Virus record (IMG/VR): IMGVR_UViG_2706794668_000011
Length of the DNA: 64,000 nt
Direction: 5' to 3' (one strand)
Source: a virus
Taxonomy: Duplodnaviria > Heunggongvirae > Uroviricota > Caudoviricetes
Shown: piece after piece, positions 9,540 through 37,476 of the stretch
Layout: every line of letters starts with the position of its first letter
Position numbering within the stretch: position 1 is the first letter of the stretch
Translations under genes and position numbers: made by a program
Notes under the pieces: generated by a model
The model's database searches: none
Seen by the model: only the letters and a program-made list of their open reading frames with translations
Told to the model about the DNA's origin: nothing

Positions 9540-9541
9540 TT

Positions 9542-10810: not shown

Positions 10811-10811
10811 T

Positions 10812-12823: not shown

Positions 12824-12832
12824 GGAGTTCTG

Positions 12833-13390: not shown

Positions 13391-13396
13391 AACAAA

Positions 13397-13436
13397 AGCC
13401 TGCTTTAAAGAGAGTTTGAAGCAGGCTTTCTTTTAA
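13397..13436 (+). terminator. rho-independent terminator
   Basis: agcctgctt/aagcaggct stem followed by ttcttttaaa. Confidence 0.7.
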
Positions 13437-13550
13437 AGAACAGTCGCCTTTCAATCATTTCCTGCCTGTATTTAATACTTTTCCGCCTGATAGGTTTAGT
13501 CAAAATGTAGCCATCGAAACGCAAATGCAACTAAACAGAAGGAGACTTAC

Positions 13551-14360
13551 ATGAGTTCGGTTGAAAATGTAATGACAAATGATGATCTGGATGAGCTGAC
13601 AGCCATGTTGCAATCACTTGATGAACCAGTAAAAAAAGCTGCACAGGTTGAAAATACTGATGATATTGACGATCTGCTTCTCGGCCTCGATGCTGGCGTA
13701 GCCATGAGTTCTGATGATGTTGCCGAAGAACTGTTCAATGAAGAAAAAGCAGGTGATTTCAGCTCTGCTTTAAATGAGTTGGAGTTAGCGCATGAGCCTA
13801 TAAACGTAATTAACGCTGAAAGTGGTGAAGCTGCCGAAAATGAGCCAGAACAGTTGGGGATCATTGAGGTTGAAGATTGTGTTGAGGTTAATGATGAATT
13901 AAAAGTTCAACAGTCAAATGATAGCAATACAAATAAAAAAACTCGTGCTGCAAGAGGTCCTAGTTTTACTTTAAGTGATAAAGATGATTCGTTTTTCAAT
14001 AAAGCAGGCTTAGAAAAAGATATTTTCTTAGACGCTTACGAAAACGCGCCTGTCAAAGCGAAGGATAAGATATTAAACCTTCTTAATTGGTTTAGCGGAG
14101 GTCCAGATATTAGTGTTTACACGGTAATTTCCATGAGACACCTTCTTACAGAAAAGAAGGCTACAAGTAATAGTATTAAGATTGCTTTAATGAGCAATCC
14201 AGAAAAACCGTATCCGCTTAACACTGCGTCAACTCAGGCTGGGCAAATGATGGCTGTATTTCCAGCTACAGGAATTGCCGTTAGAGACGGTGGAAATCTA
14301 ACATTGAACGAAGAATCACCGATCGTTAAGAAGTTTGTCGCGGAGTACACTATTGGATGA
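13551..14360 (+). CDS. hypothetical strongly acidic protein (possible DNA-mimic or anti-restriction protein)
   Basis: 269 aa with RBS aaggag; about 28 percent Asp+Glu in the first ~130 residues and very few basic residues; immediately upstream of the Dam-like methylase. Confidence 0.5.
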   Translation: MSSVENVMTNDDLDELTAMLQSLDEPVKKAAQVENTDDIDDLLLGLDAGVAMSSDDVAEELFNEEKAGDFSSALNELELAHEPINVINAESGEAAENEPEQLGIIEVEDCVEVNDELKVQQSNDSNTNKKTRAARGPSFTLSDKDDSFFNKAGLEKDIFLDAYENAPVKAKDKILNLLNWFSGGPDISVYTVISMRHLLTEKKATSNSIKIALMSNPEKPYPLNTASTQAGQMMAVFPATGIAVRDGGNLTLNEESPIVKKFVAEYTIG

Positions 14361-21759: not shown

Positions 21760-22065
21760 ATGAACAACCTCCAGTTAGAGCATTTTAACGTCACAGGCCA
21801 TTCTGATTTTCCTTTCAAGTTTACATTGAAAGGTTATGCAGAGGATGCGGTAGGCCAGATCATTATTGATAAAGGCATCGTTAAGTTTGAGGGGGATTTT
21901 GATGAATCCGCGAAAACATTCATAGACTTCATTGCCAAACGTTGGAGCGAGCAATGGAAAGACCTGGAAAAGCGCGCTAATGAGTTTGATCGGTTCATGG
22001 ATACAATGGATACAGCAAAAGAGGCTCTAGTTGCCAGACCACGGCCCGTATTTGTTCCGAATTGA
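21760..22065 (+). CDS. hypothetical protein
   Basis: 101-aa ORF. Confidence 0.5.
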   Translation: MNNLQLEHFNVTGHSDFPFKFTLKGYAEDAVGQIIIDKGIVKFEGDFDESAKTFIDFIAKRWSEQWKDLEKRANEFDRFMDTMDTAKEALVARPRPVFVPN

Positions 22066-22514
22066 CAGATAAGTCCAGCCTAATCTACGAAGTTAATGTA
22101 GGCGGTAATACATGGGGCGAATGCACAAGAGCTGCATACGTAAGAGCAAAAGACAATGGGGAATTAACCAGAGTTGTTACCAATCACCCAAATAATGAGC
22201 TTAAAGATCACCAAATTCGAGAACTAGTGAATGAGTTGCGGGATATTGCGGTTACGTATCACGGAACGCAGCAATTGCGGGAGAAAATTGCCAGAGCAGT
22301 GAACAACTCGCTCAAAGGTGGACAATCCCAACCGAAACGTATACGAATTACACATATAGGTGAAAACGGAACAGAAATCCCCCAATTTTCTGTTGGGGAC
22401 ATCTTTGATGTACATGGAGAAGAGTTTGGCGAGCCTCACATCACTATGCCTAGTGGCCATGTTTATTGGCTAAGAGCTATGGAGAAATATGGTGATAAAT
22501 GGGAAGTGTTATGA
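22062..22514 (+). CDS. hypothetical protein (probable TTG start coupled to upstream stop)
   Basis: 150-aa ORF with no in-frame ATG near the 5' end; TTG overlaps upstream TGA. Confidence 0.4.
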   Translation: MTDKSSLIYEVNVGGNTWGECTRAAYVRAKDNGELTRVVTNHPNNELKDHQIRELVNELRDIAVTYHGTQQLREKIARAVNNSLKGGQSQPKRIRITHIGENGTEIPQFSVGDIFDVHGEEFGEPHITMPSGHVYWLRAMEKYGDKWEVL

Positions 22515-22527
22515 GGGATGCGAAGTT

Positions 22528-23052
22528 ATGACTAAATTTGGAAAGCTGGAAGCTCATTTGCTAACTCGTAACTACCGCTATGATGTGCATCCATATAGAC
22601 AGTGGATCGATGAAAGCGAAGGAGTTGTTACATTCCCTCTATACAGGTTTGATGGGATGTTGGCCGGGTATCAGACATACAGACCAGGCGCTCCTAAGCA
22701 GCATAGCAATCCGAAGATGGCCCGGTATTTCACACGAGCGCACGGCAGACAGCTACTATGGGGAACCTATCTTCCTTTAAAAGATGGACCGATATGGATA
22801 ACTGAGTCGATTTTTAAAAGTGCAGCAGTGCACAACGCGGGCGGAAATTCGTGGGCGCTGTTAGGTTCGACTTTCTCAGCAGGATTACGTCGTCAACTGG
22901 CAATGCTGCCGTATGACTTTCGCGTAATAGGTGACAATGATGCGGCTGGTGAATCACTTGTGAAGTCTTTCGGAAAAGGTTTTGTGGCCCCGGATCTTGA
23001 CGAGCTACAACCAAATGAAGTGTCTCATTTGATTTTTAGCCATAGCCAATAA
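22528..23052 (+). CDS. hypothetical protein
   Basis: 174 aa from internal ATG. Confidence 0.45.
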   Translation: MTKFGKLEAHLLTRNYRYDVHPYRQWIDESEGVVTFPLYRFDGMLAGYQTYRPGAPKQHSNPKMARYFTRAHGRQLLWGTYLPLKDGPIWITESIFKSAAVHNAGGNSWALLGSTFSAGLRRQLAMLPYDFRVIGDNDAAGESLVKSFGKGFVAPDLDELQPNEVSHLIFSHSQ

Positions 23053-23089
23053 GCATCCCTTCTCCATTAAGGCCACTAGTTGTGGCCTT

Positions 23090-23112
23090 AAACAATTTGT
23101 TTTCTACCTTTT
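23090..23112. promoter_or_regulatory. motif A copy in reverse orientation (aaacaatttgttttctacctttt); left copy of a 23-bp direct repeat
   Basis: Identical 23-mer at 27028-27050. Confidence 0.6.
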
Positions 23113-23188
23113 CTTGTTCGAGAAAATAACGTTCCTTTGTCTGGTGCTATGTACCGATCAGTTGCACTGAGTGAGCTTCTTTCATGTA

Positions 23189-23208
23189 TACTGTGTAAAT
23201 GAACAGTA
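23189..23208. promoter_or_regulatory. LexA (SOS) box
   Basis: tactgtgtaaatgaacagta fits CTGT-N8-ACAG exactly; overlaps a plausible sigma70 promoter (ttgcac ... tgtata) 17 nt upstream of the UmuD'-like gene. Confidence 0.65.
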
Positions 23209-23224
23209 TTGAGGGCAAAACGCT

Positions 23225-23614
23225 ATGGGCTTCCCTTCTCCTGCGGCGGATTATGCTGAGAGCCGTATTTCTCTTGATCAGCAGATAATTAGACATCCTT
23301 CAGCGACCTACTTCATGAGAGCAGCTGATAGTCATCATCGTGAGGGAATATTACAGGGTGCATTGCTGGTGGTTGATTCCTCACTTACCCCGGTTGATGG
23401 TTCTCTGCTTGTATGCGCTCTGGATGGGGAATATCGCGTAAAAAGATACCGGAAGTCTCCACGTCAGCATCTGGAGGATTTAAGAACCGGTAAGAAGGAA
23501 GCATTGCCAAAGGATGACGATGGATGCACGGGCAGCAATGCCGTGTTTGGTGTGATCACTCACATTATCAACGACGCAAGAAGTGGCGAGTTTGATGATT
23601 GTCCTGTGATGTAG
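23225..23614 (+). CDS. UmuD'-like protein (pre-truncated UmuD homologue, HumD type)
   Basis: 129 aa beginning MGFPSPAADY, i.e. at the position of the UmuD Cys24-Gly25 self-cleavage site; shares HPSATYF and VFGVI motifs with UmuD; Ser/Lys dyad positions appear retained. Confidence 0.75.
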   Translation: MGFPSPAADYAESRISLDQQIIRHPSATYFMRAADSHHREGILQGALLVVDSSLTPVDGSLLVCALDGEYRVKRYRKSPRQHLEDLRTGKKEALPKDDDGCTGSNAVFGVITHIINDARSGEFDDCPVM

Positions 23615-23625
23615 GAGAACTGATT

Positions 23626-23651
23626 AGGCGGTGCAATGCACCGCCTTTTTA
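23626..23651 (+). terminator. rho-independent terminator
   Basis: aggcggtg/caccgcct hairpin followed by ttttt; lies 1 nt beyond the apbC stop on the other strand. Confidence 0.65.
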
Positions 23652-24752
23652 TCACACTGCGCGGAATGCGATTTCGCCAGGTATTACTTCACCTTGCCAA
23701 TACATTTGGGCAGCAACGCGATCTGCGAGGTCACGATAAATAGCCGTAAATTCGCTATCTGGACGACTAATAACGGTTGGTGTTCCGTTATCCAGATCTT
23801 CACGAAGAGAGATATGAAGTGGCATTTGGCCTAACAACTGCGTGTTGTATTTCTCGGCCAGTTTCTGTGCTCCACCGGTGCCAAAAATTGGCTCGTGATG
23901 ACCGCAGTTACTGCAAATATGCACACTCATGTTTTCAACGATACCCAGTACCGGCACTTCGACTTTTTCGAACATCACAATGCCTTTCTTCGCATCGATC
24001 AGCGCGATGTCTTGCGGCGTAGTTACCACAACCGCACCAGTTACAGGAATGTTCTGCGCCAGCGTCAATTGAATATCACCAGTGCCCGGTGGCATATCGA
24101 GAACGAGATAGTCCAGATCAGGCCACAGTGTTTCCTGCAACATCTGCATCAGCGCCTTGCTCGCCATCGGTCCACGCCACACCATTGCATTGTCATCGGT
24201 GACCAGATAACCAATAGAGTTGGTTGCCAGGCCATGAGACATGATAGGTGCCATGTGAGTACCGTCCGGTGAGGTTGGACGTTGGTTTTCCGCGCCCAGC
24301 ATGGTTGGAATTGATGGACCATAGATATCGGCATCCAAAATACCAACTTTCGCACCTTCAGCAGCCAAAGCCAGTGCCAAGTTTACTGCTGTGGAGGATT
24401 TACCCACGCCGCCCTTGCCTGAGCTGACGGCGATAATGTTCTTAACGCCATTAATGCCTGGTTGGTTTTTGACGCGCTTAAGCGTGGCAATGTTGTACGA
24501 CAGCTTCCAGTCAATAGCCTTTGCGCCAGTGATACGGAGCAGATCACCACTACATTGCTCTTTCAGGTCTTCAAAAGGCTTATTCCACACGAAAGGCATG
24601 ATTAGTTCGACATGCAGTGTGTCATCCATCAACGCAACATGGTGTAACGCTTTAAGCGTAGTCAAGTTGTGTTTCAGGGTTGGGTGCTGAAAATTAGCCA
24701 GCGTACCGGCTACCATTGCTCTCAGGGCATCCGGCGATTTGGACTCGCTCAT
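23652..24752 (-). CDS. apbC: Fe-S cluster carrier ATPase ApbC/Mrp, host-type
   Basis: 366 aa; very close match over the full length to enterobacterial Mrp as I remember it, including the deviant Walker A SGKGGVGKS and the CxxC motif. Confidence 0.9.
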   Translation of the reverse strand: MSESKSPDALRAMVAGTLANFQHPTLKHNLTTLKALHHVALMDDTLHVELIMPFVWNKPFEDLKEQCSGDLLRITGAKAIDWKLSYNIATLKRVKNQPGINGVKNIIAVSSGKGGVGKSSTAVNLALALAAEGAKVGILDADIYGPSIPTMLGAENQRPTSPDGTHMAPIMSHGLATNSIGYLVTDDNAMVWRGPMASKALMQMLQETLWPDLDYLVLDMPPGTGDIQLTLAQNIPVTGAVVVTTPQDIALIDAKKGIVMFEKVEVPVLGIVENMSVHICSNCGHHEPIFGTGGAQKLAEKYNTQLLGQMPLHISLREDLDNGTPTVISRPDSEFTAIYRDLADRVAAQMYWQGEVIPGEIAFRAV

Positions 24753-24909
24753 CCCGTCTCCTTTATTTTAATTTGCGCAATTGTCGCCTTGTAGTGTACT
24801 CCAGCTACGACATTTAATCATTTATGAGAAATGCTGTTATCACATGGCAGACATAAGGCCATTTTGTTACTATCAAGCCCCTTTTCACTACAAAGAAGTA
24901 ATGCCTACT

Positions 24910-26943
24910 ATGACCCAAGTCGCGAAGAAAATTCTGGTGACGTGCGCGCTGCCGTACGCTAACGGCTCAATCCACCTCGGCCATATGCTGGAGCACATCC
25001 AGGCTGATGTCTGGGTTCGTTACCAGCGAATGCGCGGCCACGAGGTTAATTTCATCTGTGCCGACGATGCCCACGGTACGCCAATCATGCTGAAAGCACA
25101 GCAGCTTGGTATCACACCGGAACAGATGATTGGCGAAATGAGTCAGGAACATCAGACTGATTTCGCAGGCTTTAACATCAGCTATGACAACTATCACTCG
25201 ACGCACAGCGAAGAGAACCGTCAGTTGTCCGAGCTTATCTACTCTCGCCTGAAAGAAAACGGTTTTATTAAAAACCGCACCATCTCACAGCTGTACGATC
25301 CGGAAAAATGCATGTTCCTGCCGGACCGTTTTGTAAAAGGCACCTGCCCGAAATGTAAATCCCCGGATCAATACGGCGATAACTGCGAAGTCTGCGGCGC
25401 GACCTACAGCCCGACTGAATTGATCGAGCCGAAATCGGTGGTTTCTGGCGCTACGCCGGTAATGCGTGATTCTGAACACTTCTTCTTTGATCTGCCCTCT
25501 TTCAGCGAAATGTTGCAGGCATGGACCCGCAGCGGTGCGTTGCAGGAGCAGGTGGCAAATAAAATGCAGGAGTGGTTTGAATCTGGCCTGCAACAGTGGG
25601 ATATCTCCCGCGACGCCCCTTACTTCGGTTTTGAAATTCCGAACGCGCCGGGCAAATATTTCTACGTCTGGCTGGACGCGCCGATTGGCTACATGGGTTC
25701 TTTCAAGAATCTGTGCGACAAGCGCGGCGACAGCGTAAGCTTCGACGAATACTGGAAGAAAGACTCCACCGCCGAGCTGTACCACTTCATCGGCAAAGAT
25801 ATCGTTTACTTCCACAGTCTGTTCTGGCCTGCCATGCTGGAAGGCAGCAACTTCCGCAAGCCGACCAACCTGTTTGTTCACGGCTATGTGACGGTGAACG
25901 GCGCGAAGATGTCCAAGTCTCGCGGCACCTTTATTAAAGCCAGCACCTGGCTGAATCATTTTGACGCTGACAGCCTGCGTTACTACTACACTGCGAAACT
26001 CTCTTCGCGCATTGATGATATCGATCTCAACCTGGAAGATTTCGTTCAGCGCGTGAATGCCGATATCGTGAACAAAGTGGTTAACCTGGCCTCCCGTAAT
26101 GCAGGCTTTATCAACAAGCGTTTTGACGGCGTGCTGACAAGCGAACTGGCTGACCCGCAACTGTACAAAACCTTTACTGATGCCGCTGAAGTGATTGGCG
26201 AAGCATGGGAAAGCCGCGAATTTGGTAAAGCTATCCGTGAAATCATGGCATTGGCTGACCTGGCTAATCGCTATGTCGATGAACAGGCTCCGTGGGTGGT
26301 GGCGAAGCAGGAAGGTCGCGATGCAGATCTGCAGGCGATTTGCTCTATGGGCATTAACCTGTTCCGCGTGCTGATGACGTACCTGAAACCGGTACTGCCG
26401 AAACTGACTGAACGTGCAGAAGCATTCCTGAATACAGAACTGACCTGGGATGGTATCCAGCAACCGCTTCTGGGCCATAAAGTGAATCCGTTCAAGGCAC
26501 TGTATAACCGTATCGATATGAAACAGGTGGAAGCACTGGTGGAAGCATCCAAAGAAGAAGTGAAAGCCACAGCTGCACCGGTAACTGGCCCACTGGCTGA
26601 CGAACCGATTCAGGAAACCATCACCTTTGACGACTTCGCCAAAGTTGACCTGCGTGTGGCGCTGATTGAAAACGCGGAGTTTGTCGAAGGTTCTGACAAA
26701 CTGCTTCGCCTGACGCTGGATCTCGGTGGTGAAAAGCGTAATGTCTTCTCAGGCATCCGTTCCGCTTATCCAGATCCACAGGCACTGATTGGTCGTCACA
26801 CCATTATGGTGGCTAACCTGGCACCACGTAAAATGCGCTTCGGTATCTCTGAAGGCATGGTGATGGCTGCCGGTCCTGGCGGGAAAGATATCTTCCTGTT
26901 AAGCCCGGATGCTGGTGCTAAACCTGGCCACCAGGTTAAGTAA
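24910..26943 (+). CDS. metG: methionyl-tRNA synthetase, host-type
   Basis: 677 aa from [10 protein letters not shown]; HLGH and KMSKS motifs, zinc knuckle CPKCK...CEVCG, C-terminal tRNA-binding domain; near-identical to E. coli MetG as remembered. The track ORF starting at 24781 is an upstream in-frame extension. Confidence 0.95.
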
Positions 26944-26963
26944 TTAAACAACCTCTCTTCGCA

Positions 26964-26990
26964 ATGCCCGGCAACACGCCGGGCATTTTC
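26964..26990 (+). terminator. rho-independent terminator downstream of metG
   Basis: atgcccggc/gccgggcat stem followed by ttt. Confidence 0.7.
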
Positions 26991-27027
26991 ATATAGACAC
27001 AATCCCTCCTGATTTACACAAGCCCTA

Positions 27028-27050
27028 AAACAATTTGTTTTCTACCTTTT
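27028..27050. promoter_or_regulatory. motif A copy in reverse orientation; right copy of the 23-bp direct repeat
   Basis: aaacaatttgttttctacctttt identical to 23090-23112. Confidence 0.6.
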
Positions 27051-27074
27051 GTTGATTGAGATAATAAGCCACAT

Positions 27075-27094
27075 AAGAAAACAACTTGTTTTGG
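27075..27094. promoter_or_regulatory. motif A copy (aagaaaacaacttgttttgg)
   Basis: 11 nt upstream of ATG 27105. Confidence 0.6.
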
Positions 27095-27104
27095 AGTAGT
27101 TGAA

Positions 27105-27404
27105 ATGTTGAACATTACCCAAGCCTACCAGGTGGCATTGATCAGTTCATCTCATACATCAGAGGAAGATGCTCGCCGATTCATGATCGCAAGCAATGAG
27201 CTGGATTGGGTTTCACAAATTGAGTACGGTTGCATTGTCCACGCCGGGTTACAGGACGATGACTGGAAAGATGAGTTGCGTCGATATGGTATATCCGAGG
27301 GTGCGATTGCGAACATTCAGAAAGTACTTGATGTAGGCTTTAACTCTGTACATTTTGATTGTGGCGCACCGGTCGTTGAAGGGCTTGAGTGCTGGCAATG
27401 GTAA
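27105..27404 (+). CDS. hypothetical protein
   Basis: 99-aa ORF with RBS ggag. Confidence 0.5.
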   Translation: MLNITQAYQVALISSSHTSEEDARRFMIASNELDWVSQIEYGCIVHAGLQDDDWKDELRRYGISEGAIANIQKVLDVGFNSVHFDCGAPVVEGLECWQW

Positions 27405-27440
27405 TCCGGCAATCGCTTCATACTAGATAACGGAGAATTT

Positions 27441-27626
27441 ATGCTTAAAGAAGACTCATATCTACTAAAGGCGCTTGAAATGAGTGGCGTTGAACCTACA
27501 GTGAAAAACGCTCACGATATCTACCTTCAGTTTTCGACAGAGCTGAAACAGCTCATAAATAAATATGGAGTGAACGACTCCAGCGTCAAAGCCATGATAG
27601 ATGATGAATTAGACCATCTCATCTAA
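27441..27626 (+). CDS. hypothetical small protein
   Basis: 61-aa ORF with RBS cggag. Confidence 0.4.
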   Translation: MLKEDSYLLKALEMSGVEPTVKNAHDIYLQFSTELKQLINKYGVNDSSVKAMIDDELDHLI

Positions 27627-27749
27627 TCAAACCGTTGATAATGGCGGTCACAATTTGATTCTTTTCTATAAGAACCCGTTGATCGCCACTACTACCCTCC
27701 CATACCAGCAATCACATCATTAAATATCAATAGGTTATGGTTGTTTATA

Positions 27750-28500
27750 CCAATAAGAAAACAACTAAATAACAGATCAACGAAACATCAACGCTTTCTC
27801 CCGATTTGGTCTAAAAAATTGACGTTATCACACATCACTTCTTATACCCGTAATTCTACGCAGCAGATAGCGCCACAGCGTCCAAATTTCACCACAGACG
27901 ACTCAACACACTACCAACAAAAACACACGCTCAAAATCGCTCCCGTTGCGTTACACAACCATATAAACAACTTATTTTCAGGCATAACAAAACAACCAAA
28001 TAACACATATGCCATTACCCAAAACAACCAACCTCTTTATGGCAGGCTACCGAAAAGACCCACCTCTTCTCCCCAGGCTACCGGACAACCAACCTAACTT
28101 TCACAGGCAATCCGAAAACATTCATACGCGCGATACCCACGACACGCCATTACCCAAACAGCGAAGAAACACCTGAACCGCTGAAACCCTAACGAAGCCT
28201 GTAACCGCAAGGTTTCTCTCAATCCCAAAAGACACGAAACATAACAATCACGGGAAACGCCATTACCCAATACACGAATAACTACAAAAGCCTTCACACA
28301 CTCCAGACAAACAACTCAAACACAATAACGAAAGCAATCGCCCACCTGCCATTACTCCATACACGGAGAAGAACAATCACCAAAACGACGAGAACACCCC
28401 CATAGAAGAACCACCGCAAAACTAACGAAACCACATACACCGACAGAGAAAACAACACACCCAATTCACCAACAGAAATAGTCGCCGTATAGAACATTCT
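27750..28500 (+). repeat. ~750-bp AC-rich, G/T-poor low-complexity tract with dispersed short repeats; probably non-coding
   Basis: Strong strand compositional skew; gccattacccaa-type repeat at 28011, 28146, 28259 and 28349; aggctaccg-type repeat at about 28041, 28074 and 28104; ORFs here look like compositional artefacts. Confidence 0.6.
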
Positions 28501-28682
28501 GGAAGGAGTGAGCATTAACGCCTATAGAGAGGTTGAGACAGATAAAACACAACATGTATAGCGAAGAAGCCAGGTATGTATAAGTGGAGAGGGAAGGAGG
28601 GGGGTCGCCTCCTTTTTCGTATTTATTCAACTCCTGATTTTATCCCCCGTAACACCCCCTACGGTCAGCCTTCGGTCCATAC

Positions 28683-28821
28683 AGGGAAAAGGTTGCATCC
28701 AGCTACAGAAACGGCTGGGTTGCCTTCGGGGGAACGGCTGGGGATTTTCAGGGAAACGGTCGAGTTGCCTGTGTGGATTTCGGGAAAAGGCTCGATGCCG
28801 GTTCTGGAACGGCGGCGTACC
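28683..28821. repeat. iteron-like tandem array (six ~20-bp repeats at ~22-23-bp spacing)
   Basis: agggaaaaggttgcatcc / cagaaacggctgggttgcc / cgggggaacggctggggat / agggaaacggtcgagttgcc / cgggaaaaggctcgatgcc / ctggaacggcggcgtacc. Confidence 0.7.
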
Positions 28822-29193
28822 GGTATAGCGAGAGAGAGTTGCAGCTACCCACCTGTAATGTGCGGGAAGAAGAGAGGCGCTCACGTGCAGGCTGACTTGC
28901 TTACCGCTGGATTCCCTCTGAATGCCAGATACAGCGTAATTGTGCCAGACAGCCAGCGGGTCACAATCGATTTCAGTAGGTTTTCGGGGAGAGGATTATT
29001 CTACCCACCAGCCCCGCGGCGCGCGTAGAGCAGAATATCGTAAATACTGGCTCTCGTGTCGTTCCCGGATATTCACTGCCCAGCCTGGCTTTCCCGACAT
29101 AAAATCCTTTTTCGCCTTTATCTTATTGCGATAATAACACCAACAAGTAAACAGCATATTTAGACGTTATAGAAACGAAGTGAGGATGAAGAG

Positions 29194-29412
29194 ATGATTA
29201 AGATGCCTGTGACGGTTGAGGTGTGGGGCGTGGATTCCCTGGCTGAGTGTCTGGATGCAGTGGGGCCGGAGTTGTACCGCAAGTTGTGGTCGTTCGTCCC
29301 GGCAGAAGGGGAATCGCCCAAAGGGAAGGATATCTGGCACCTGCTGAGTGAAGATGAAAAGCGGGAGCTGGTGGGCGCGGTACACAGCGAGTTCCCGGAC
29401 GACCAAGATTAA
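29194..29412 (+). CDS. hypothetical small protein
   Basis: 72-aa ORF with RBS gagga. Confidence 0.45.
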   Translation: MIKMPVTVEVWGVDSLAECLDAVGPELYRKLWSFVPAEGESPKGKDIWHLLSEDEKRELVGAVHSEFPDDQD

Positions 29413-29482
29413 GAGTGAGGCCACCAGCACGGTGGCTTTTGTCGCTATTAACCTCGGGGCAGCGCAGCACCGTAACGATATA

Positions 29483-29542
29483 CTTTGTGGCCGTTTTCTT
29501 ACTGGTATTGTTTACGTAATTCAGAAAACAACATGTTTAAGG
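29483..29542 (+). promoter_or_regulatory. promoter-operator cassette, copy 1 (putative -35 ttgtgg, -10 tattgt, then motif A)
   Basis: ~60-bp direct repeat of 29968-30027 (~85 percent identical); motif A cagaaaacaacatgtttaa at 29522-29540. Confidence 0.55.
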
Positions 29543-29550
29543 ATTGCTTT

Positions 29551-29880
29551 ATGTTTGCAAATATCGACATCAACCAAATTAAGAAATTGACTCAAAAAGA
29601 GTTTGACCAGTTTTATGAGCTGGAAGGTTGGTCTTCCACTCTGATTAATTCAAGATGGGTGCTGGAGCTGATGACTCGTGATGACGCACCTGCTTTGATG
29701 ATTTGCGACATGGGTGAAGATGCTGACTTTATGGATATGAGCGAATTTTGTGTGGACACATACAACCGCAGCCAGAAGTACTACTTCACATGCGATAGCG
29801 AAAATGACGTGATTTCTAAGGTCTATCTTCACCTCGTCCAGCATTGGGACGTTCAGGACTTCCTTGCGATATTCGCGTAA
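29551..29880 (+). CDS. hypothetical protein
   Basis: 109 aa from ATG preceded by aagga. Confidence 0.5.
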   Translation: MFANIDINQIKKLTQKEFDQFYELEGWSSTLINSRWVLELMTRDDAPALMICDMGEDADFMDMSEFCVDTYNRSQKYYFTCDSENDVISKVYLHLVQHWDVQDFLAIFA

Positions 29881-29967
29881 GCCCAACCAAAGCCAGCATT
29901 GCTGGCTTAACTTCATCTGTAGCCGCAGGGAAGAACCTGCATATCGCTCATGCGCCTGATCAATATG

Positions 29968-30027
29968 CTTTGTAGCCGTTTTCTTACTGGTATTATTTAC
30001 GCCATTGAGAAAACAAGTTGTTTACGG
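29968..30027 (+). promoter_or_regulatory. promoter-operator cassette, copy 2 (putative -35 ttgtag, -10 tattat, then motif A)
   Basis: Direct repeat of 29483-29542; motif A gagaaaacaagttgtttac at 30008-30026. Confidence 0.55.
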
Positions 30028-30034
30028 AGTTGTG

Positions 30035-30346
30035 ATGAAAAAATCATTGGTTCTTGGTCTGGACAAAGACCAGAAGAGAAAAGAGAAGCCTGCACTGGTT
30101 GCTCAATTAACTTTGCTGGACATCGTTGCCAATGGAACCTCTATTCGTCTGTTCCGTGAAACAGCGGTGTCTTTCGATAAAAACACCTTTACTCGTTATG
30201 TAATGAATGTTCGTCGCCAGCGTGGAAAAGGCTGGATGGCATTTCAAAGAATGTGGCCGGAACATCAGCTCGAACTGGCTTTGATGGAAGTTAACCGCGT
30301 GGCCCAGCAAGAGATTCAGAGAGCATCAGTGATGGCAATAGCCTGA
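30035..30346 (+). CDS. hypothetical protein
   Basis: 103 aa from ATG preceded by ggag. Confidence 0.5.
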   Translation: MKKSLVLGLDKDQKRKEKPALVAQLTLLDIVANGTSIRLFRETAVSFDKNTFTRYVMNVRRQRGKGWMAFQRMWPEHQLELALMEVNRVAQQEIQRASVMAIA

Positions 30347-30471
30347 TAATGTGCAAGTGGTAATTAGTCGACAGTACGACAGCCCCGCCATCCTTACGGG
30401 GTTTTTTGTATTGTAAGTACATACCTATGTCTATAAAATAGAAAAATAACCAAGACACTATGGAGAGTGAT

Positions 30472-30867
30472 ATGAGCGTTAAACGAGAAAACCTGACAGT
30501 TGATGTCTACTATGCTTCAGAAAGCGCCGAAGGTAAGAATGTAGCTAAAATCACCGTCGTTACGTACAACACCGAAACTGGAACTGAAGTTCAGGCAAGT
30601 ACTATTGTGCGTAAAGGAGATACATCAGGCGGGGAATATGAGGCGCAATATCAGTCCATTTTTGATGCAACGGACCCGTTGTTGTTGAAAATTGAAAGTT
30701 ACTTCCGTAAGGTGAATAAAGAGGTGTTTGAAACCATGATGAATATGGTTAACACCGTATTCGCTTCCAGTCTGAACACTAACACTACCTGGATTGGTCA
30801 GTATGGTCTGCGCATTACCTCCGGCATTCCTGCTGACACCTTAATCCCTGAAAGCGTATTCGCTTAA
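30472..30867 (+). CDS. hypothetical protein
   Basis: 131 aa from ATG preceded by ggagag. Confidence 0.5.
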   Translation: MSVKRENLTVDVYYASESAEGKNVAKITVVTYNTETGTEVQASTIVRKGDTSGGEYEAQYQSIFDATDPLLLKIESYFRKVNKEVFETMMNMVNTVFASSLNTNTTWIGQYGLRITSGIPADTLIPESVFA

Positions 30868-30876
30868 TCCTCTTTG

Positions 30877-30905
30877 AATGGCGCGTAAACCGCGCCATTT
30901 TCTTA
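30877..30905 (+). terminator. rho-independent terminator
   Basis: aatggcgcg/cgcgccatt stem followed by ttcttatg. Confidence 0.7.
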
Positions 30906-30911
30906 TGCCCG

Positions 30912-30931
30912 ATAACAATTTGTTTTCTGCC
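30912..30931. promoter_or_regulatory. motif A copy in reverse orientation (ataacaatttgttttctgcc)
   Basis: 55 nt upstream of ATG 30986. Confidence 0.55.
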
Positions 30932-30985
30932 TTATCTGATTTGTGAAAATGCTTTCACTGAAAGCAACTTGATAAGGAAACCATC

Positions 30986-31360
30986 ATGGGACTTGATATC
31001 TACATTGAGACGCAACCAAAAAACGATCTGAATAACGATGCATCCAGAAAGAAGGTTGCTTACTTCCGTAAGTTCAATGCTCTCTTTGGGTGGATGGAAC
31101 GCAACGTAGGTGAAGTCAAAAATTGTGAGCTTTTAGAATTAACGATGAATGACATTTGTGCTCTGAAAGCTCATTTGATGCACATGAACGAAAGTAACTG
31201 CGAAGAGTACTTACCTACCTGTGAAGGTTTTTTCTTCGGCAGTCAGGAGTACGATGAAGGGTACTGGCATGACGTGGGGGAGTTGAAAAAACTTGTGGAA
31301 GAGCTGATTAAGAACCACGACTTTCACAATAACAGACTGACCTTCTGCGCCTGGTGGTAA
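30986..31360 (+). CDS. hypothetical protein
   Basis: 124-aa ORF with RBS aagga. Confidence 0.5.
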   Translation: MGLDIYIETQPKNDLNNDASRKKVAYFRKFNALFGWMERNVGEVKNCELLELTMNDICALKAHLMHMNESNCEEYLPTCEGFFFGSQEYDEGYWHDVGELKKLVEELIKNHDFHNNRLTFCAWW

Positions 31361-31362
31361 AT

Positions 31363-31506
31363 ATGGGCGATTTCAAGAAACGCCTGAAGGAAAGAGCCGA
31401 GATAGTCAGAAAGCAAAACGCCTCTTCTGTCATCAGATACGCAAGGCAGTTTAGTCGCAACAACAAATCAGTTGAGGAAAAGATCCTTAGCGTAATCGGT
31501 CGATAA
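31363..31506 (+). CDS. small basic protein (47 aa), not in ORF track
   Basis: ATG 2 nt after upstream stop; Arg/Lys-rich; followed by a strong hairpin at 31512-31536. Confidence 0.3.
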   Translation: MGDFKKRLKERAEIVRKQNASSVIRYARQFSRNNKSVEEKILSVIGR

Positions 31507-31554
31507 TTATTAAGGCCACCACTGCTGGTGGCCTTAAATGACCATCCTGTTTCC

Positions 31555-31633
31555 CGCAGGCTAAAAACACCAACCTCTTACCTCCAGGCAACCGACAAAC
31601 CCACCTGTTCCCGTCCGGCTACCGCAACTTTCC
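31555..31633. repeat. second iteron-like family (aggc-t/a-accg-type units, ~30-bp spacing)
   Basis: aggctaaaaacacc / aggcaaccgacaaac / cggctaccgcaactt; same family as repeats at about 28041-28120. Confidence 0.55.
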
Positions 31634-31672
31634 ACTTTGACGCCTTATTCGTACAACGATAATTAACGCCAA

Positions 31673-31693
31673 CAAGAAAACAATTTGTTATTT
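31673..31693. promoter_or_regulatory. motif A copy (caagaaaacaatttgttattt)
   Basis: 18 nt upstream of ATG 31711. Confidence 0.55.
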
Positions 31694-31710
31694 ACGATAA
31701 GGAATTAATC

Positions 31711-32193
31711 ATGAATTTTATCGCTACTGTAAACGCACCCGCACATGGCAATATCGCTGTAACGTTCTCTGACATTGAAAAACGAGTACTTGGTGCATGG
31801 CGCGACAATGAGACGGTAGAACTGTCAGCACAAGAAAAATGCATTATTGCACGCGACATCATTGGCAATCGTCGTTACTCGCGGGTATTTGAGAAAGCGT
31901 ATGTGGTAAATTCTGGATTCGGAACGTTCGTCTTTCCGGTGCGCTCCGGGCGATTCTGCCAGTCCAAGCTGATTGAGTTCGCTACGCAGATTTCTGTCTG
32001 GATTAAAACTCAATCGTCGTTCAAATTTTCCGACGATGAAGCAGTATCGCAGGGGATGCGGATCGCCAACAATGCAATTAAATGCAAAAACATTACGTAT
32101 ACCGCTGGCGTTGATACATGGAAACTGTTTTGCGCTAACTTTATGCTGAATGTATACGCAAGCAACCGCATCCACATCCTTGATGGTGTGTAA
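31711..32193 (+). CDS. hypothetical protein
   Basis: 160-aa ORF with RBS aagga. Confidence 0.5.
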   Translation: MNFIATVNAPAHGNIAVTFSDIEKRVLGAWRDNETVELSAQEKCIIARDIIGNRRYSRVFEKAYVVNSGFGTFVFPVRSGRFCQSKLIEFATQISVWIKTQSSFKFSDDEAVSQGMRIANNAIKCKNITYTAGVDTWKLFCANFMLNVYASNRIHILDGV

Positions 32194-32202
32194 CTGAGAA
32201 GA

Positions 32203-32225
32203 GGGCCAGTAACGGCCCTTTCTCT
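32203..32225 (+). terminator. rho-independent terminator
   Basis: gggcc/ggccc stem followed by tttctct. Confidence 0.6.
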
Positions 32226-32242
32226 ATAGCCACCAGATGCCG

Positions 32243-32329
32243 CAGGGAAATTTTCAGAAACGGCGAGGAACGTATTCATGAACCGACGGGGAACGGCCAG
32301 GATTTTTTCGGGAAACGGCTGCATTCGCC
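32243..32329. repeat. second array of the gggaaacgg-type iteron family
   Basis: cagggaaattttc / cagaaacggcgaggaacg / cggggaacggccaggatt / cgggaaacggctgcattcgcc; homologous to units at 28683-28821. Confidence 0.65.
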
Positions 32330-32593
32330 TTTATGTAGAAAAAACATCGGGAAGCTGGTGGAATCCAACCAGCGGTTGTCGGACAGGTGAGCGGGGAAAA
32401 TTATGATGACTTTCGTCGCCTGAGACATCCAGATTTCTTTCGTAGCGTAATCGCATACGTGATTAAGTGGTGTGATTATGTGAAAAATCACGCGCACATA
32501 ATACGCGAGCGGATACGGAACAAAACAAAATGCCGATCCGCGCCGACAAATAAACGCGGATCACATAGCAAGACTAAAAGCCAATGATTAACT

Positions 32594-32808
32594 ATGCGCT
32601 ATAGCGCAATATAACGCGTTTTAAGCGCGTTAATGTGTTAAGTAATGGGTATGTACTGGCAAGGATATAAAAGCGCGTCTATGGCGTTATTTTGGCGCTT
32701 ATTTTTATGTTGTTGGAGTGAGTCAAAGACAATAAAAAACGCGCCATCATTGGCGCGTTATGGTGGGAGTATTGGAAACGAAAAAAGCGCCCACTATGGG
32801 CGCTATTG
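32594..32808. repeat. cluster of short GCGC-core hairpins in AT-rich DNA
   Basis: tgcgcta/tagcgca 32594-32607; aacgcg/cgcgtt 32614-32632; aacgcgcca/tggcgcgtt 32738-32760; agcgccca/tgggcgct 32786-32804 (flanked by A- and T-runs, terminator for the minus-strand gene ending at 32812); a near-identical hairpin recurs at 33281-33301. Confidence 0.6.
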
Positions 32809-32811
32809 TTT

Positions 32812-33039
32812 TTATTTTTCTAAGCGAATATTAAAACCAGCGTTTAAAAATTCTTGAAGCATTAAAGTAACATCTGCTTCATTGATTCCTGCGCGCGCTC
32901 TATGTTCTACGTCATTGATGTTTATTTTAAACGTTGTTTCATCAACCACTTCAGAACTTAGAGCATATCCAGCTAAACCAGCAATATCATAAACAAGAGT
33001 ATGATTATTGATATTTACGCCAGAGATGAAAATAACCAT
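32812..33039 (-). CDS. hypothetical small protein
   Basis: 75-aa ORF with canonical RBS aaggag 8 nt upstream on the minus strand. Confidence 0.45.
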   Translation of the reverse strand: MVIFISGVNINNHTLVYDIAGLAGYALSSEVVDETTFKININDVEHRARAGINEADVTLMLQEFLNAGFNIRLEK

Positions 33040-33059
33040 GATTAAGCTCCTTAAAAAAA

Positions 33060-33263
33060 TTAAATAGAATTATGAAGTTTTCCGATTAATGCGCTTAAAC
33101 GTAAGTATTCACGTTTACGCTTGCAATCTCGTTTGCTGTTAAGCAAATCAGAAAACGTAAAATTTAATTGGTCGCGTTGCGCGATTAAATCATTGATTAA
33201 TTCTAGTTTATAAGCGCGATACTTTGCGCGATATTCCGCGCGGATCTTGTCATAGCTGACCAT
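33060..33263 (-). CDS. hypothetical small basic protein
   Basis: 67-aa ORF with canonical RBS aaggag; Lys/Arg-rich and helical in character. Confidence 0.45.
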   Translation of the reverse strand: MVSYDKIRAEYRAKYRAYKLELINDLIAQRDQLNFTFSDLLNSKRDCKRKREYLRLSALIGKLHNSI

Positions 33264-33312
33264 TTTTTAAAGCTCCTTTAAAGCGCCCATAGTGGGCGCT
33301 TGATTCCATTAA

Positions 33313-33963
33313 TTACGCTTTGAAAGCGTCAGCTAGATAATTGTAGAAATCATTCTTGATAAAGCGATATTGCTGTGTACCAGCTTTGGCGCTTCCCATT
33401 CCTTTGACTTTCTCAACAAGTCCGAGACGTTCGCAAAGATTGATTAGCTGGTTAGCTTGAGTATAGCCAGCGTCCAATTTAATTTCACACGCTTTTTTAG
33501 CTTCATTCATTAAATCGAAAACAGCGCCATTCGTGAACGTGTCGATCTCGTCGTTAATCATATCGATTAAAGCGAATACACGAGATCCAGACATATCAGC
33601 GACGGAATAAACACATTTTCCAGCTTTAATTGATTTAACCAGATAAACCAGTTTTTCCAGTGAATAACTATTAGTCATAGCGTCACGAAAAAATACTTCT
33701 GGCGCTTGTTTGCTTGCTTTAATCGCATAGTAGAAAACAGAGCATAATTTTTCGTCTTCTACAGCGTTTACGACGTTGTTGATGAAGTAAGCAAGTTTAG
33801 TGGTCGCAGCTTGCATATTTGCTTTGTCTGCTTTAGTGTGCGTACCATTTTTATAATGTTCGTTATATGTTTGAGTTGCCAGATCTGCTTTTTCGCGCAG
33901 TTCGTCGGATACAATAGATGCAGCTTCAATGATGGACTTTTTAGAAATGATAATGTTAGCCAT
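33313..33963 (-). CDS. hypothetical protein
   Basis: 216-aa ORF with RBS aagga. Confidence 0.5.
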   Translation of the reverse strand: MANIIISKKSIIEAASIVSDELREKADLATQTYNEHYKNGTHTKADKANMQAATTKLAYFINNVVNAVEDEKLCSVFYYAIKASKQAPEVFFRDAMTNSYSLEKLVYLVKSIKAGKCVYSVADMSGSRVFALIDMINDEIDTFTNGAVFDLMNEAKKACEIKLDAGYTQANQLINLCERLGLVEKVKGMGSAKAGTQQYRFIKNDFYNYLADAFKA

Positions 33964-34216
33964 GATTTTATTCCTTAGTATAAATATTAAAATTTAACTC
34001 AAGAAAGAAAGTGTTTTGCACTCGTTCCTGATGCGTTCAATTATCGATACGCGAAAAAAGATTGCAAGTGTTTTTTTAAGTTTTTTTGCAGGGATGAAAG
34101 TCCTAGAAATAAATGTTAGATCGTCGAGGGTGTTCCCTAAATAAATAATCGATTCCGGCTTTAGACCTTATATATTTATACGGGGTAGAATTGAAAGAGT
34201 ATAAAATGAATGGCAT

Positions 34217-34250
34217 GTAAAATAATAACCGGACTTAGCCGGTTATTACC
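34217..34250 (-). terminator. rho-independent terminator (minus strand)
   Basis: taataaccgg/ccggttatta stem followed by a U-run on the minus-strand transcript. Confidence 0.7.
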
Positions 34251-34260
34251 CTTATAGAAA

Positions 34261-34782
34261 TTAAAACGGAAGGATTCGTTCAACCCAATCGAAGAAAATA
34301 AGTATTTTTCTACCGTCTTCCAACTTAAGTGTGACTAGACAGGCGTCAACGCCATCTGACGTTCCCTCAATTTCGCGACCGTCTGCCATGTAGACCCTTA
34401 TAGATTTGCCGTTTTGGTAAGCCTGACGACATATCTTAAAAAAGTCACGACGTGATGGCTGATTAACCATCTGTTCATTGTTTAGCGTTAGTCGACCTGT
34501 GAATGAAGTGTCAACCTCTTCTATGCCCGACTCAATTGTGCTAATGCGCTCAAGAGGGAGCCTTATACGATTTGTGTTGCTAAGCGGATCTGGTGTGAGG
34601 TTCAGCTTATTTCTTGCGCTCAATAGCCCGTAGACATACATGCAAAACACTTGGCCGTCTTCGAGAGTGACTCTTACAGGAAATTTTGCACTCCGCCAGA
34701 AGAGCAAGGTACGTTCAGCATGTTCGTAGTCTCGCGGCCATACTTCAGCCGGTATGCCGTAGGTGATGTCCAATGTTCTCAT
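34261..34782 (-). CDS. hypothetical protein
   Basis: 173-aa ORF; 4-nt overlap with upstream gene suggests co-translation. Confidence 0.5.
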   Translation of the reverse strand: MRTLDITYGIPAEVWPRDYEHAERTLLFWRSAKFPVRVTLEDGQVFCMYVYGLLSARNKLNLTPDPLSNTNRIRLPLERISTIESGIEEVDTSFTGRLTLNNEQMVNQPSRRDFFKICRQAYQNGKSIRVYMADGREIEGTSDGVDACLVTLKLEDGRKILIFFDWVERILPF

Positions 34783-35372
34783 TCTGATACTCTTAGAGGT
34801 GTTTTCAGCAACCCAAATTTAAATTCTTTGTTACCAACGACAAAGAAGGGAACCTCAACATAGATTTTTTTATCGACGGATTTAGAGTTCGCTGTTTTCT
34901 GTATGTCACGAACGATACGTTTTGAGGTATTTTCATCGATAAACAATACCTTTCCACTTGTATTCCCTTCAGCCTTGGCGTAAGTAACGATAGGCTCTTC
35001 ATTGCCAACCCTAATGTTTACTTGGCAACCTGTTGTAGCCATTTCATCACAGTAAAGTGTGCCGTCTTGAACTTCCAAAACAATTCCAGATGGCTTCATG
35101 GCTTCGTCAGAGCTTACATTAACGTTTTCTGGTACAGCGGTTCCGTTAATTTGCAACCGTAATCTTTCTTTTCCTGCATTAAGTATTGTTTCTTCTGCGT
35201 TATCTGAGAATCTGAACCAGACTGGTTGAATCAGACCTCGTGATTCGTATTTTAGTACGTCTTCAGAAGTATACATGCTGTACGTTTTTTGCATGTCGGA
35301 GACGATATCTGACAACGCATTGGCGGAAAATGACGAGAGGTATATACAAGCAAGAAGTAACGAACGTTTCAT
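34779..35372 (-). CDS. secreted or periplasmic protein of unknown function
   Basis: 197 aa; N-terminal Sec-type signal peptide MKRSLLLACIYLSSFSANA with AxA cleavage motif. Confidence 0.55.
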   Translation of the reverse strand: MKRSLLLACIYLSSFSANALSDIVSDMQKTYSMYTSEDVLKYESRGLIQPVWFRFSDNAEETILNAGKERLRLQINGTAVPENVNVSSDEAMKPSGIVLEVQDGTLYCDEMATTGCQVNIRVGNEEPIVTYAKAEGNTSGKVLFIDENTSKRIVRDIQKTANSKSVDKKIYVEVPFFVVGNKEFKFGLLKTPLRVSE

Positions 35373-35460
35373 TTTTATACAGCGATTATTGCAAAGTAGA
35401 ATTATAAATATCCAATAGTCTCAAACGATAAGTTTTCAACTGTAAATAGCAGACGTGTTT

Positions 35461-35498
35461 TCTCTAAAAGCTGTGCGGCAAAGGCGTTGTTGCCGCAC
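35461..35498 (-). terminator. terminator-like hairpin (minus strand)
   Basis: gtgcggcaa/ttgccgcac stem with short U-run. Confidence 0.45.
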
Positions 35499-35553
35499 TC
35501 TGTCTATTAGCTCTTCAAGTCTGGCAATTCTGAAATTGACTAAGAATCCAATA

Positions 35554-35832
35554 TTACGGCAGTTTGCTTAGAATTTGCTCTAAATCTTCCTTTGTCATAT
35601 TAGAGTTCTCATAGATGCGCATGATTTTCTCACGAGCCTTAGCAGAGACTCCAACGGCAGATGAAACTTTGTCAAATTCAGCCATCGTCATCGTCTCCAG
35701 AATGGTATTGATAACTTCAGCCTTAGACATTTTGATGTTTTTTTCTTTTAGTTTCATTTGAAACTTTCCAAGTTTGTCATTGGCCTTATCGGACAATGCC
35801 ACCTGACAATAAGTTGTTTTCTTTTCGCTCAT
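35554..35832 (-). CDS. hypothetical protein
   Basis: 92-aa ORF starting 3 nt after the helicase stop. Confidence 0.45.
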   Translation of the reverse strand: MSEKKTTYCQVALSDKANDKLGKFQMKLKEKNIKMSKAEVINTILETMTMAEFDKVSSAVGVSAKAREKIMRIYENSNMTKEDLEQILSKLP

Positions 35833-35834
35833 AA

Positions 35835-37394: not shown

Positions 37395-37435
37395 AAACCT
37401 CTTTCCTTAGTGCCTTTTGTATGTTATTTGGCTAT

Positions 37436-37462: not shown

Positions 37463-37476
37463 ATTGTAGCAATAAA

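Follow-up and report, generated by a model that had tools for sequence, protein, structure and literature searches.

An auxiliary apbC–metG gene pair on a pWPMR2-type phage-plasmid

Organization of the apbC–metG locus

The apbC (mrp) and metG genes, which encode an Fe-S cluster carrier and methionyl-tRNA synthetase (MetRS), lie between positions 23,090 and 27,050 of the virus record IMGVR_UViG_2706794668_000011 (Caudoviricetes), a 64,000-nucleotide stretch of DNA that is referred to here as the window. An earlier note, made from the letters of the window without database searches, had described them as a host-type gene pair embedded in a phage backbone. Both open reading frames (ORFs) were found where the note had placed them, each with full-length Pfam matches (Table 1). 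They have the same divergent arrangement as mrp–metG in E. coli K-12, and the window also contains terminase, portal, tape measure and tail J genes, so that the note was correct in these respects.

The two proteins have the features expected of their families. ApbC matched PF10609 (NUBPL/ApbC-type ParA) at full length, over residues 103–346 (342 bits), and contains a deviant Walker A P-loop (GKGGVGKS at 112) and a C-terminal CXXC motif (CSNC at 280). MetG, as expected of the long dimeric enterobacterial form, contains a class I catalytic domain (tRNA-synt_1g, PF09334, residues 8–397, 550 bits), an anticodon-binding domain (Anticodon_3, PF19303, 416–540) and a C-terminal domain (tRNA_bind, PF01588, 581–674). 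Its HIGH motif (HLGH at 22), KMSKS motif (at 333) and zinc-knuckle cysteines (CPKC at 146 and CEVCG at 159) are all intact.

The UmuD′-like gene that had been noticed next to the pair proved to be a humD homologue of the P1 type, with 86–88% nucleotide identity to humD of P1, P7, D6, RCS47 and SJ46. It has the S24/UmuD fold, the length of 129 amino acids and the predicted LexA-box promoter of a HumD protein, and in the P1 and P7 records a LexA site is marked at the corresponding place ahead of humD. Its length and its homology to P1 HumD, rather than an alignment with UmuD, indicate that the self-cleavage segment is missing. The hairpin between the convergent humD and apbC genes showed no homology to the E. 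coli chromosome, and homology to K-12 began at 23656. The humD gene is a module separate from apbC–metG. Further upstream, the gene at 22489–23049 matched phrog_849 (DNA primase). A second match to CTGT-N8-ACAG (GTCTGTTCCGTGAAACAGCG, 30149–30164) resembles a LexA box and may have arisen by chance.

Table 1. Positions of features at the apbC–metG locus and of related sites (window coordinates unless another sequence is named)
Feature	Position	Strand	Description
Terminator-like hairpin	23067–23091	+	10-bp stem TTAAGGCCAC...GTGGCCTTAA; 3′ of toprim/primase-like gene 22489–23052; abuts upstream 23-mer
Upstream 23-mer	23090–23112	+	Palindromic operator-like core AAACAAtTTGTTT (23090–23102) and spacer, then weak −10-like GAAAAT
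LexA box	23189–23208	+	TACTGTGTAAATGAACAGTA; CTGT-N8-ACAG at 23191–23206, ahead of humD
humD	23225–23614	+	129 aa, Peptidase_S24 (PF00717); P1-type pre-truncated UmuD′ homologue
Bidirectional terminator hairpin	23626–23646	both	Between convergent humD and apbC; −18.6 and −17.5 kcal/mol on the two strands
apbC (mrp)	23652–24752	−	Fe-S cluster carrier P-loop NTPase, 366 aa, intact
apbC/metG divergent promoter region	24753–24909		157 bp, versus 131 bp in K-12
metG	24910–26943	+	Methionyl-tRNA synthetase, 677 aa; listed ORF begins upstream at TTG, 24781
E. coli chromosomal-type (gene-conversion) tract in metG	25242–25737	+	Maximum chi-square 49.2, reached by 0 of 300 permutations
metG terminator hairpin	26964–26990	+	ATGCCCGGC-AACAC-GCCGGGCAT and TTTT; −19.1 kcal/mol
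Downstream promoter/operator cassette (predicted)	27028–27104	+	23-mer, TGAGATAAT, second palindrome AAACAACTTGTTT, GGAG, DUF5983 ATG
Extended −10-like element	27057–27065	+	TGAGATAAT; from sequence reading and conservation
Second palindrome	27079–27091	+	AAACAACTTGTTT; within downstream cassette
DUF5983 gene	27105–27404	+	99 aa, phrog_5003; conserved right-hand neighbour of metG in both known module lineages
Palindrome sites	7408, 17624, 18353, 23090, 27028, 27079, 27965, 29526, 30011, 30913, 31678, 40998, 41023		AAACAAnTTGTTT
Second-lineage example	L094: 3300–7200		NCBI DAFUVE010000025.1, 64-kb E. coli contig

The window belongs to a family of phage-plasmids

The window is a phage-plasmid of the pWPMR2/pSLy3 type, with the same order of humD, apbC, metG and the DUF5983 gene as its relatives. 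A 4.2-kb region containing these genes was 100% identical to two complete circular S. sonnei plasmids (LR213459.1 and NZ_CP045933.1, ~108 kb) and to 'Escherichia phage CMS-2020a'. Identities of 94–99% were found with p09EL50 from E. coli O104:H4, with phages Cyrano and PhiR41_1 and with numerous further plasmids. PLSDB contains 185 plasmids with at least 80% of the apbC–metG block, at block identities of 94–100%, and 213 of 5426 complete E. coli genomes likewise have it. Its bacterial carriers were E. coli, Shigella and E. albertii, and their origins were varied, with animals and water among them.

Relatives of the window exist in an extrachromosomal circular state, as complete plasmids of 107–112 kb, and have also been recovered as phages (records CMS-2020a, Cyrano and PhiR41_1). 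Two ParB-family partition genes lie just downstream of the matching region in the identical plasmid relative, and typing of plasmid relatives with MOB-suite gave replicon rep_cluster_488 or IncFIB, non-mobilizable. The tailed-phage morphogenesis set of the window is therefore combined with plasmid maintenance functions in its relative, as expected of a phage-plasmid. pWPMR2 and its relatives (p09EL50, pAUSMDU00010534_01, CMS-2020a, Cyrano and PhiR41_1) share the gene order and the phage and partition genes. We found no essential difference between them and the window, except that the window is without 4.9 kb of ead/Ea22-type genes present in NZ_CP045933.1. One preprint assigns S. sonnei pWPMR2-like elements to SSU5 clade K (bioRxiv 10.1101/2025.09.12.675607); the SSU5-supergroup assignment used here is taken from that source rather than from alignment to SSU5, pSLy3 or pWPMR2 references.

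A phage-plasmid-borne, highly variable metG has been described in S. sonnei (PMC12452169; bioRxiv 10.1101/2025.09.12.675607). One of the readings offered in the earlier note, an auxiliary MetRS copy, agrees with this account of pWPMR2, and it is the only one of them that stands. The window is thus a pWPMR2-type phage-plasmid carrying an auxiliary metG of a kind already described.

The 4.9 kb missing relative to NZ_CP045933.1 comprises ead/Ea22-like, DUF551 and ClpX-zinc-finger genes. The sequences on its two sides share a 12-bp overlap at 22024–22035, and the loss is therefore explained as a deletion between short repeats; it fuses two ORFs (21760–22065 and 22062–22514). Homology to the related plasmid pNT1F34-108k is likewise lost at 22034. 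Elsewhere, at 5030–14300 (homologous to 93000–102270 of NZ_CP045933.1), the window carries a nucleotide-metabolism set made up of nrdA, nrdB and the genes for thymidylate synthase, dihydrofolate reductase (DHFR), a 3′-5′ exonuclease and RNase HI. In the presence of this set, metG and apbC are two of many host-like auxiliary genes.

Extent and divergence of the block

Alignment to K-12 showed 88.9% nucleotide identity over the whole block, with homology spanning only 23656–26944, from stop codon to stop codon. The same limits were found against about 45 other enterobacterial chromosomes, and beyond 26944–26951 neither K-12 nor any of 80 other chromosomes was homologous. Neither of the flanking terminators is of chromosomal type, and nor is most of the intergenic region. 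The hairpin following metG, which had been called host-like, was confirmed as a hairpin followed by a T run; in view of its lack of chromosomal homology it is specific to the element and not the chromosomal metG terminator. Within the divergent promoter region just 47 bp adjoining metG were E. coli-like (89%). The remainder aligned best with Citrobacter (about 73–78%), and the whole region was 99–100% conserved among phage-plasmids. Compared with the chromosomal mrp(apbC)–metG locus, the block has the same genes in the same divergent orientation, a metG of 677 codons with its catalytic motifs, and the 47 bp upstream of metG, but differs in its flanks, its terminators and most of its intergenic DNA; its apbC is three codons shorter and its metG is mosaic.

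The two genes differ greatly in their distance from K-12. MetG was 99.0% identical to the K-12 protein (670 of 677 residues, seven differences), and its gene was 95.1% identical, with a synonymous divergence (dS) of 0.24 and a ratio of nonsynonymous to synonymous divergence (dN/dS) of 0.02. ApbC was 94.0% identical (366 versus 369 amino acids), and its gene 81.7% identical, with dS about 1.3–1.7 and dN/dS about 0.02. The description of the proteins as near-identical to those of enterobacteria thus holds for MetG and more loosely for ApbC, but does not extend to the DNA, which is not host-identical.

Possible donors were sought among 80 enterobacterial genomes, with one genome per species and with the E. 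albertii, E. fergusonii and S. sonnei chromosomes outside the comparison. Among the matches listed, E. coli had the closest chromosomal metG, and no chromosomal apbC exceeded 82% nucleotide identity. The phage-plasmid apbC was equally distant from E. coli and Citrobacter, which are closer to each other (84%), and its longest exact run in common with K-12 was 33 bp. A protein search found nothing above 95% identity to ApbC except the element's own protein, although the database was clustered at 90% and this result is therefore uninformative on the donor. We conclude that apbC is too diverged for exchange with the host copy and evolves on its own.

Comparison of phage-plasmid alleles revealed 14–34 synonymous and 0–2 nonsynonymous differences in apbC, and dN/dS of 0.014–0.08 in metG. 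ApbC was conserved more strongly than MetG: in six PGAP-annotated plasmid relatives, the ApbC accession WP_000004356.1 recurred in five, whereas the MetG accession differed in each. Both genes are thus under strong purifying selection, and the dN/dS values together with the intact motifs suggest that MetG is active in aminoacylation in vivo. The divergence of the block, its conservation and the intactness of its genes indicate that it is old, conserved and functional.

Exchange between phage-plasmid and chromosomal metG

Identity to chromosomal genes is unevenly distributed along metG. The 5′ 1.1 kb was 97.5% identical to K-12, and the 3′ 0.9 kb was equally close (about 92%) to K-12 and to Escherichia sp. 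E1V33, between which identity is 94%; the identities of the segments point to three different apparent ancestries. The phage-plasmid alleles contained long runs identical to K-12, and the positions of these varied from allele to allele. In a maximum chi-square test with 300 permutations, the two parents were K-12 and the consensus of the remaining plasmid alleles. This test identified the tract listed in Table 1, within which metG was K-12-like at 20 of 22 informative sites, compared with 12 of 85 elsewhere in the gene. A similar tract, also reached by none of 300 permutations, was found in metG of p09EL50, and none in metG of Cyrano or of the FDAARGOS_524 plasmid. When the segment 25290–26000 was compared with the 5426 complete E. 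coli genomes, chromosomal metG gave the best match (99.0%), ahead of every phage-plasmid copy. These patterns argue that plasmid metG repeatedly exchanges tracts with host chromosomal metG by homologous recombination. Such exchange explains why metG is hypervariable between plasmids and nevertheless E. coli-like.

Three substitutions, G134C, A410T and D565E, were unique to the window among the seven phage-plasmid MetG alleles compared. The Cys134 codon (TGC, 25309–25311) lies inside the imported E. coli-type tract, and the residue is 12 positions ahead of the first zinc-knuckle cysteine. Position 134 is glycine in 78 of 79 chromosomal orthologues from Enterobacterales and in all six other phage-plasmid alleles. 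We put forward tentatively that phage-plasmid metG may act as a mobile 'allele shuttle', importing host tracts and in principle exporting variants such as G134C. If so, an essential translation gene would be horizontally exchangeable among E. coli, Shigella and E. albertii lineages, and the exchange would be the source of the 'highly variable' metG described from S. sonnei.

Recombination with the chromosome bears on a further reading raised in the earlier note, in which the block is a homology patch that allows an integrase-less element to integrate at the chromosomal apbC–metG locus by RecA-dependent recombination; we considered it in the form of a reversible single crossover at metG/mrp. 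The conversion tracts indicate that plasmid and chromosomal metG do recombine, and the exact runs shared by metG and K-12, 20 of them at least 25 bp long and the longest 259 bp, suffice for RecA. No integrase has been reported in the window, in which no search aimed at integrases was made. However, the element-specific 167 bp following metG occurred at 215 places in 213 of the 5426 complete E. coli genomes, every one on a plasmid record and none chromosomal, and when the metG-to-DUF5983 junction was used as the query every chromosomal match stopped at the metG stop codon. The element has its own ParB-type partition genes and is deposited in the form of ~108-kb circular plasmids. apbC, at 82% identity and with no exact run above 33 bp, would be useless for such a patch, and strong purifying selection on both proteins would be unnecessary. 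We consider this explanation very unlikely. Recombination with the chromosome clearly happens, but stable integration was not seen among the 5426 complete genomes.

The 23-bp repeat and the downstream cassette

The note had reported an identical 23-mer, AAACAATTTGTTTTCTACCTTTT, on both sides of the block, and had attributed it to a promoter/operator motif of the element itself. Both exact copies were confirmed; a third copy with three mismatches lies at 30913, and none would be expected by chance. The core of the 23-mer is the palindrome AAACAAnTTGTTT, of which the window contains 13 sites against 0.5 expected, in agreement with the attribution. Most sites precede the start codon of a small plus-strand gene by 10–60 nucleotides, and the form AGAAAACAAnTTGTTTnnGGAG directly ahead of the start codon is frequent. 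The palindrome is a likely operator at which a dimeric regulator would control early or accessory genes of the element. We also considered, and rejected, formation of an RNA hairpin by AAACAAnTTGTTT: one fold would require an impossible 1-nt loop, and the other would depend on a 4-bp A-U stem of insufficient strength. Recognition of the palindrome as DNA by a dimeric protein is the more plausible explanation. A generic sigma-70 promoter scan gave hits no more frequently than in shuffled sequences. The assignments of the cassette −10 element (TGAGATAAT) and of the metG promoter rest on sequence reading and conservation.

The right-hand copy of the 23-mer begins the predicted promoter/operator cassette of the DUF5983 gene, which is conserved in Cyrano, p09EL50 and the draft assemblies L093 and L094 described below. 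Plasmid pNT1F34-108k lacks the sequence corresponding to 22035–27027 of the window and its homology resumes exactly at 27028, from which we conclude that the left edge of the cassette is a true module junction. A search for empty sites with the joined flanks found no plasmid in which the toprim and DUF5983 genes are directly adjacent, and only pNT1F34-108k without a larger stretch. The left-hand copy behaves differently: phage Cyrano has the block but no 23-mer ahead of its humD gene. Chromosomal homology ends 564 and 84 bp inside the repeats, rather than at the repeats as for a target-site duplication or att repeat. The statement that a direct repeat brackets the block is thus overstated, since just the right-hand copy lies at a junction: Cyrano has no upstream copy, humD is separate, and homology ends at the stop codons. 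The 23-mer is one instance of the repeated palindromic operator and promoter of the element and not an insertion scar of the block. The variable region in which the block lies is assembled from modules that have such cassettes at their edges.

These results bear on the proposal that host DNA was captured recently by recombination between the two 23-mer cassettes, and on the possibility of a chimeric assembly. The two exact copies flank a block of higher G+C content (0.50–0.52, versus 0.41–0.47 in the neighbouring kilobases), the right-hand copy is a genuine module junction, and the contig contains a run of Ns. However, divergence from E. coli reaches 11% over the block and 18% in apbC, and the matches listed include no closer donor; the humD gene inside the repeats is of P1 type; and the upstream repeat is missing from Cyrano, which has the block. 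The same junctions are kept in hundreds of independently assembled complete plasmids and in four phage records. Window positions 22024–39197 were 99.96% identical over 17 kb to an independently finished circular S. sonnei plasmid, which confirms both junctions of the block. The N run (254 Ns, 7518–7771) lies inside nrdB, the class Ia ribonucleotide reductase (RNR) beta-subunit gene, and replaces 255 collinear bp of the complete plasmid. It is a mask or a gap of true size and not a scaffold join. The suspected scaffolding artefact thus finds no support, and the divergence of the genes and their conservation across the element family contradict recent capture, being largely the outcome that the note had named as refuting it. 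We regard either event as scarcely credible.

A second lineage of the module

The protein search with ApbC brought to light a second, deeply diverged module, with the order apbC, metG, terminator, 23-mer cassette and DUF5983 gene, in the draft E. coli assemblies L092–L095. Its apbC was 75.7% identical to that of the window and 72.8% to that of K-12, and its metG 92–96% and 96–97% identical, respectively. The terminator, cassette and DUF5983 gene were 84–87% identical to those of the window, and the terminator stem of the L093/L094 module contains a compensatory change. The left flank is different, with BOF, hok, ccp-like, cybC-like and hsdS neighbours and other diverged genes of 'chromosomal type'. 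We considered chromosomal integration as an explanation of the L093/L094 arrangement, but the evidence points elsewhere: identity of the ccp-like flank to E. coli ccp is as low as 78.6%, and the L092–L095 arrangement was absent from all complete E. coli genomes searched. The context resembles that of a different mobile element, perhaps a phage-plasmid related to these and having hsdMS in common with NZ_AP027904.1. The second lineage supports the view that the gene pair became associated with the cassette and the DUF5983 gene long ago. In it too metG has stayed E. coli-like while apbC has drifted, which supports concerted evolution of the mobile gene with host metG and suggests that such evolution is general for the module.

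Origin and possible role of the module

We consider it probable that a pWPMR2/pSLy3-type phage-plasmid of the SSU5 supergroup has long carried the block as an established cargo module. The element would replicate as a circular plasmid of ~108 kb and also form phage particles. An enterobacterial apbC–metG pair, cut exactly at both stop codons, would have become fixed beside a P1-type, LexA-controlled humD gene, settled upstream of the element's promoter/operator cassette and DUF5983 gene, and gained terminators of its own. Both genes would have remained intact and kept the divergent promoter region of chromosomal type, and modules would be swapped at the repeated operator/promoter cassettes of the variable region. 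The intact genes, the kept promoter region and the purifying selection together imply that a cell would hold a second expressed MetRS, and ApbC, along with the element; metG and apbC would both be expressed from the kept promoter.

Several points weigh against this interpretation. Expression of metG and apbC is a prediction from the sequence. A chromosome outside the comparison may prove to be a closer donor of apbC or of the 3′ part of metG. The gap in divergence between apbC and metG could partly reflect a difference in synonymous rate, since K-12 and Citrobacter also differ more in apbC (dS 1.2) than in metG (0.74). We judge such a difference to be insufficient, because the ratio of dS between the two genes is about 5–7-fold for the phage-plasmid versus K-12. 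The equally well conserved apbC has to be treated as a passenger or co-selected partner. Finally, the tolerance phenotype and the relevant allele features are known here through two citing papers (PMC12452169; bioRxiv 10.1101/2025.09.12.675607).

Tam et al. 2024 (medRxiv 10.1101/2024.10.27.24316207, cited in PMC12452169) are reported to have linked phage-plasmid metG to antimicrobial survival: expression of the extra, variable metG gives rise to a bacterial sub-population predisposed to acquire third-generation cephalosporin resistance, a finding discussed in the citing paper under antimicrobial tolerance and persistence. The published work also connects phage-plasmid metG with multidrug-resistant, sexually transmitted S. 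sonnei lineages. An essential translation gene whose second, mobile copy raises antibiotic survival is of clinical relevance. The module occurs in about 4% of complete E. coli genomes, and these came from human, livestock, wildlife and water sources. Interpretation of metG variants in surveillance may benefit from several details added here, namely the unlike ancestries of apbC and metG, the tracts converted from host metG, the lineage-specific G134C, the cassette-bounded module junction and the second divergent lineage.

Mutations in metG are known as tolerance or persistence alleles of E. coli from laboratory evolution and persister screens. The same gene is concerned here, and the window allele bears G134C at a near-invariant site, but the phage-plasmid variant is an additional mobile copy beside an intact chromosomal gene. 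Any effect must therefore be dominant or based on dosage. The mupA/ileS2 gene is a plasmid-borne second aminoacyl-tRNA synthetase that confers resistance to mupirocin. Like phage-plasmid metG, it is an extra synthetase gene on a mobile element that alters antimicrobial outcome. Enzymes of the mupA/ileS2 type, however, are highly divergent and insensitive to a specific synthetase inhibitor, whereas phage-plasmid MetRS shares 99% identity with the enzyme of the host, and its reported effect concerns survival of unrelated drugs. The block also resembles phage morons and auxiliary metabolic genes, in being a dispensable, self-contained unit with its own promoter region and terminators between phage genes, predicted to be expressed independently of the lytic programme. 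It differs from them in that its cargo is an essential housekeeping gene pair which still recombines with the host copy.

Alternatively, the extra MetRS (and ApbC) might benefit lytic growth of the phage or maintenance of the plasmid, with antibiotic tolerance as a side effect. It could do so by boosting translation initiation, by serving the RNR, thymidylate synthase (ThyA) and DHFR set, or by buffering attack by the host or a competitor on MetRS or tRNA-Met. The many auxiliary metabolic genes on the element (nrdAB and those for thymidylate synthase, DHFR and RNase HI), the even stronger conservation of ApbC than of MetG and the existence of a second, divergent lineage of the module are in keeping with such a benefit. 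The module is also kept across E. coli, Shigella, E. albertii, animals and water, and selection on it is therefore not confined to antibiotic-exposed clinical lineages. However, a MetG 99% identical to the host enzyme would add dosage rather than a new property. The block is moreover dispensable for the life cycle, since pNT1F34-108k, a member of the family, is without it. We therefore think this alternative rather unlikely. The established cargo module remains our preferred interpretation: the auxiliary phage-plasmid metG is already described, and the locus represents neither a fresh capture of host DNA nor a new integration mechanism.

Other repeats in the window

Two sets of three ~30-bp direct repeats were found at 28021–28117 and 31535–31628, with a consensus around ACCAACCTCTT..CAGGCTACCG. 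They are associated with a region poor in coding sequences and A-skewed (about 27700–29100, AT skew 0.28), in which no gene is annotated in the identical plasmid. The repeats resemble iterons or a non-coding feature.

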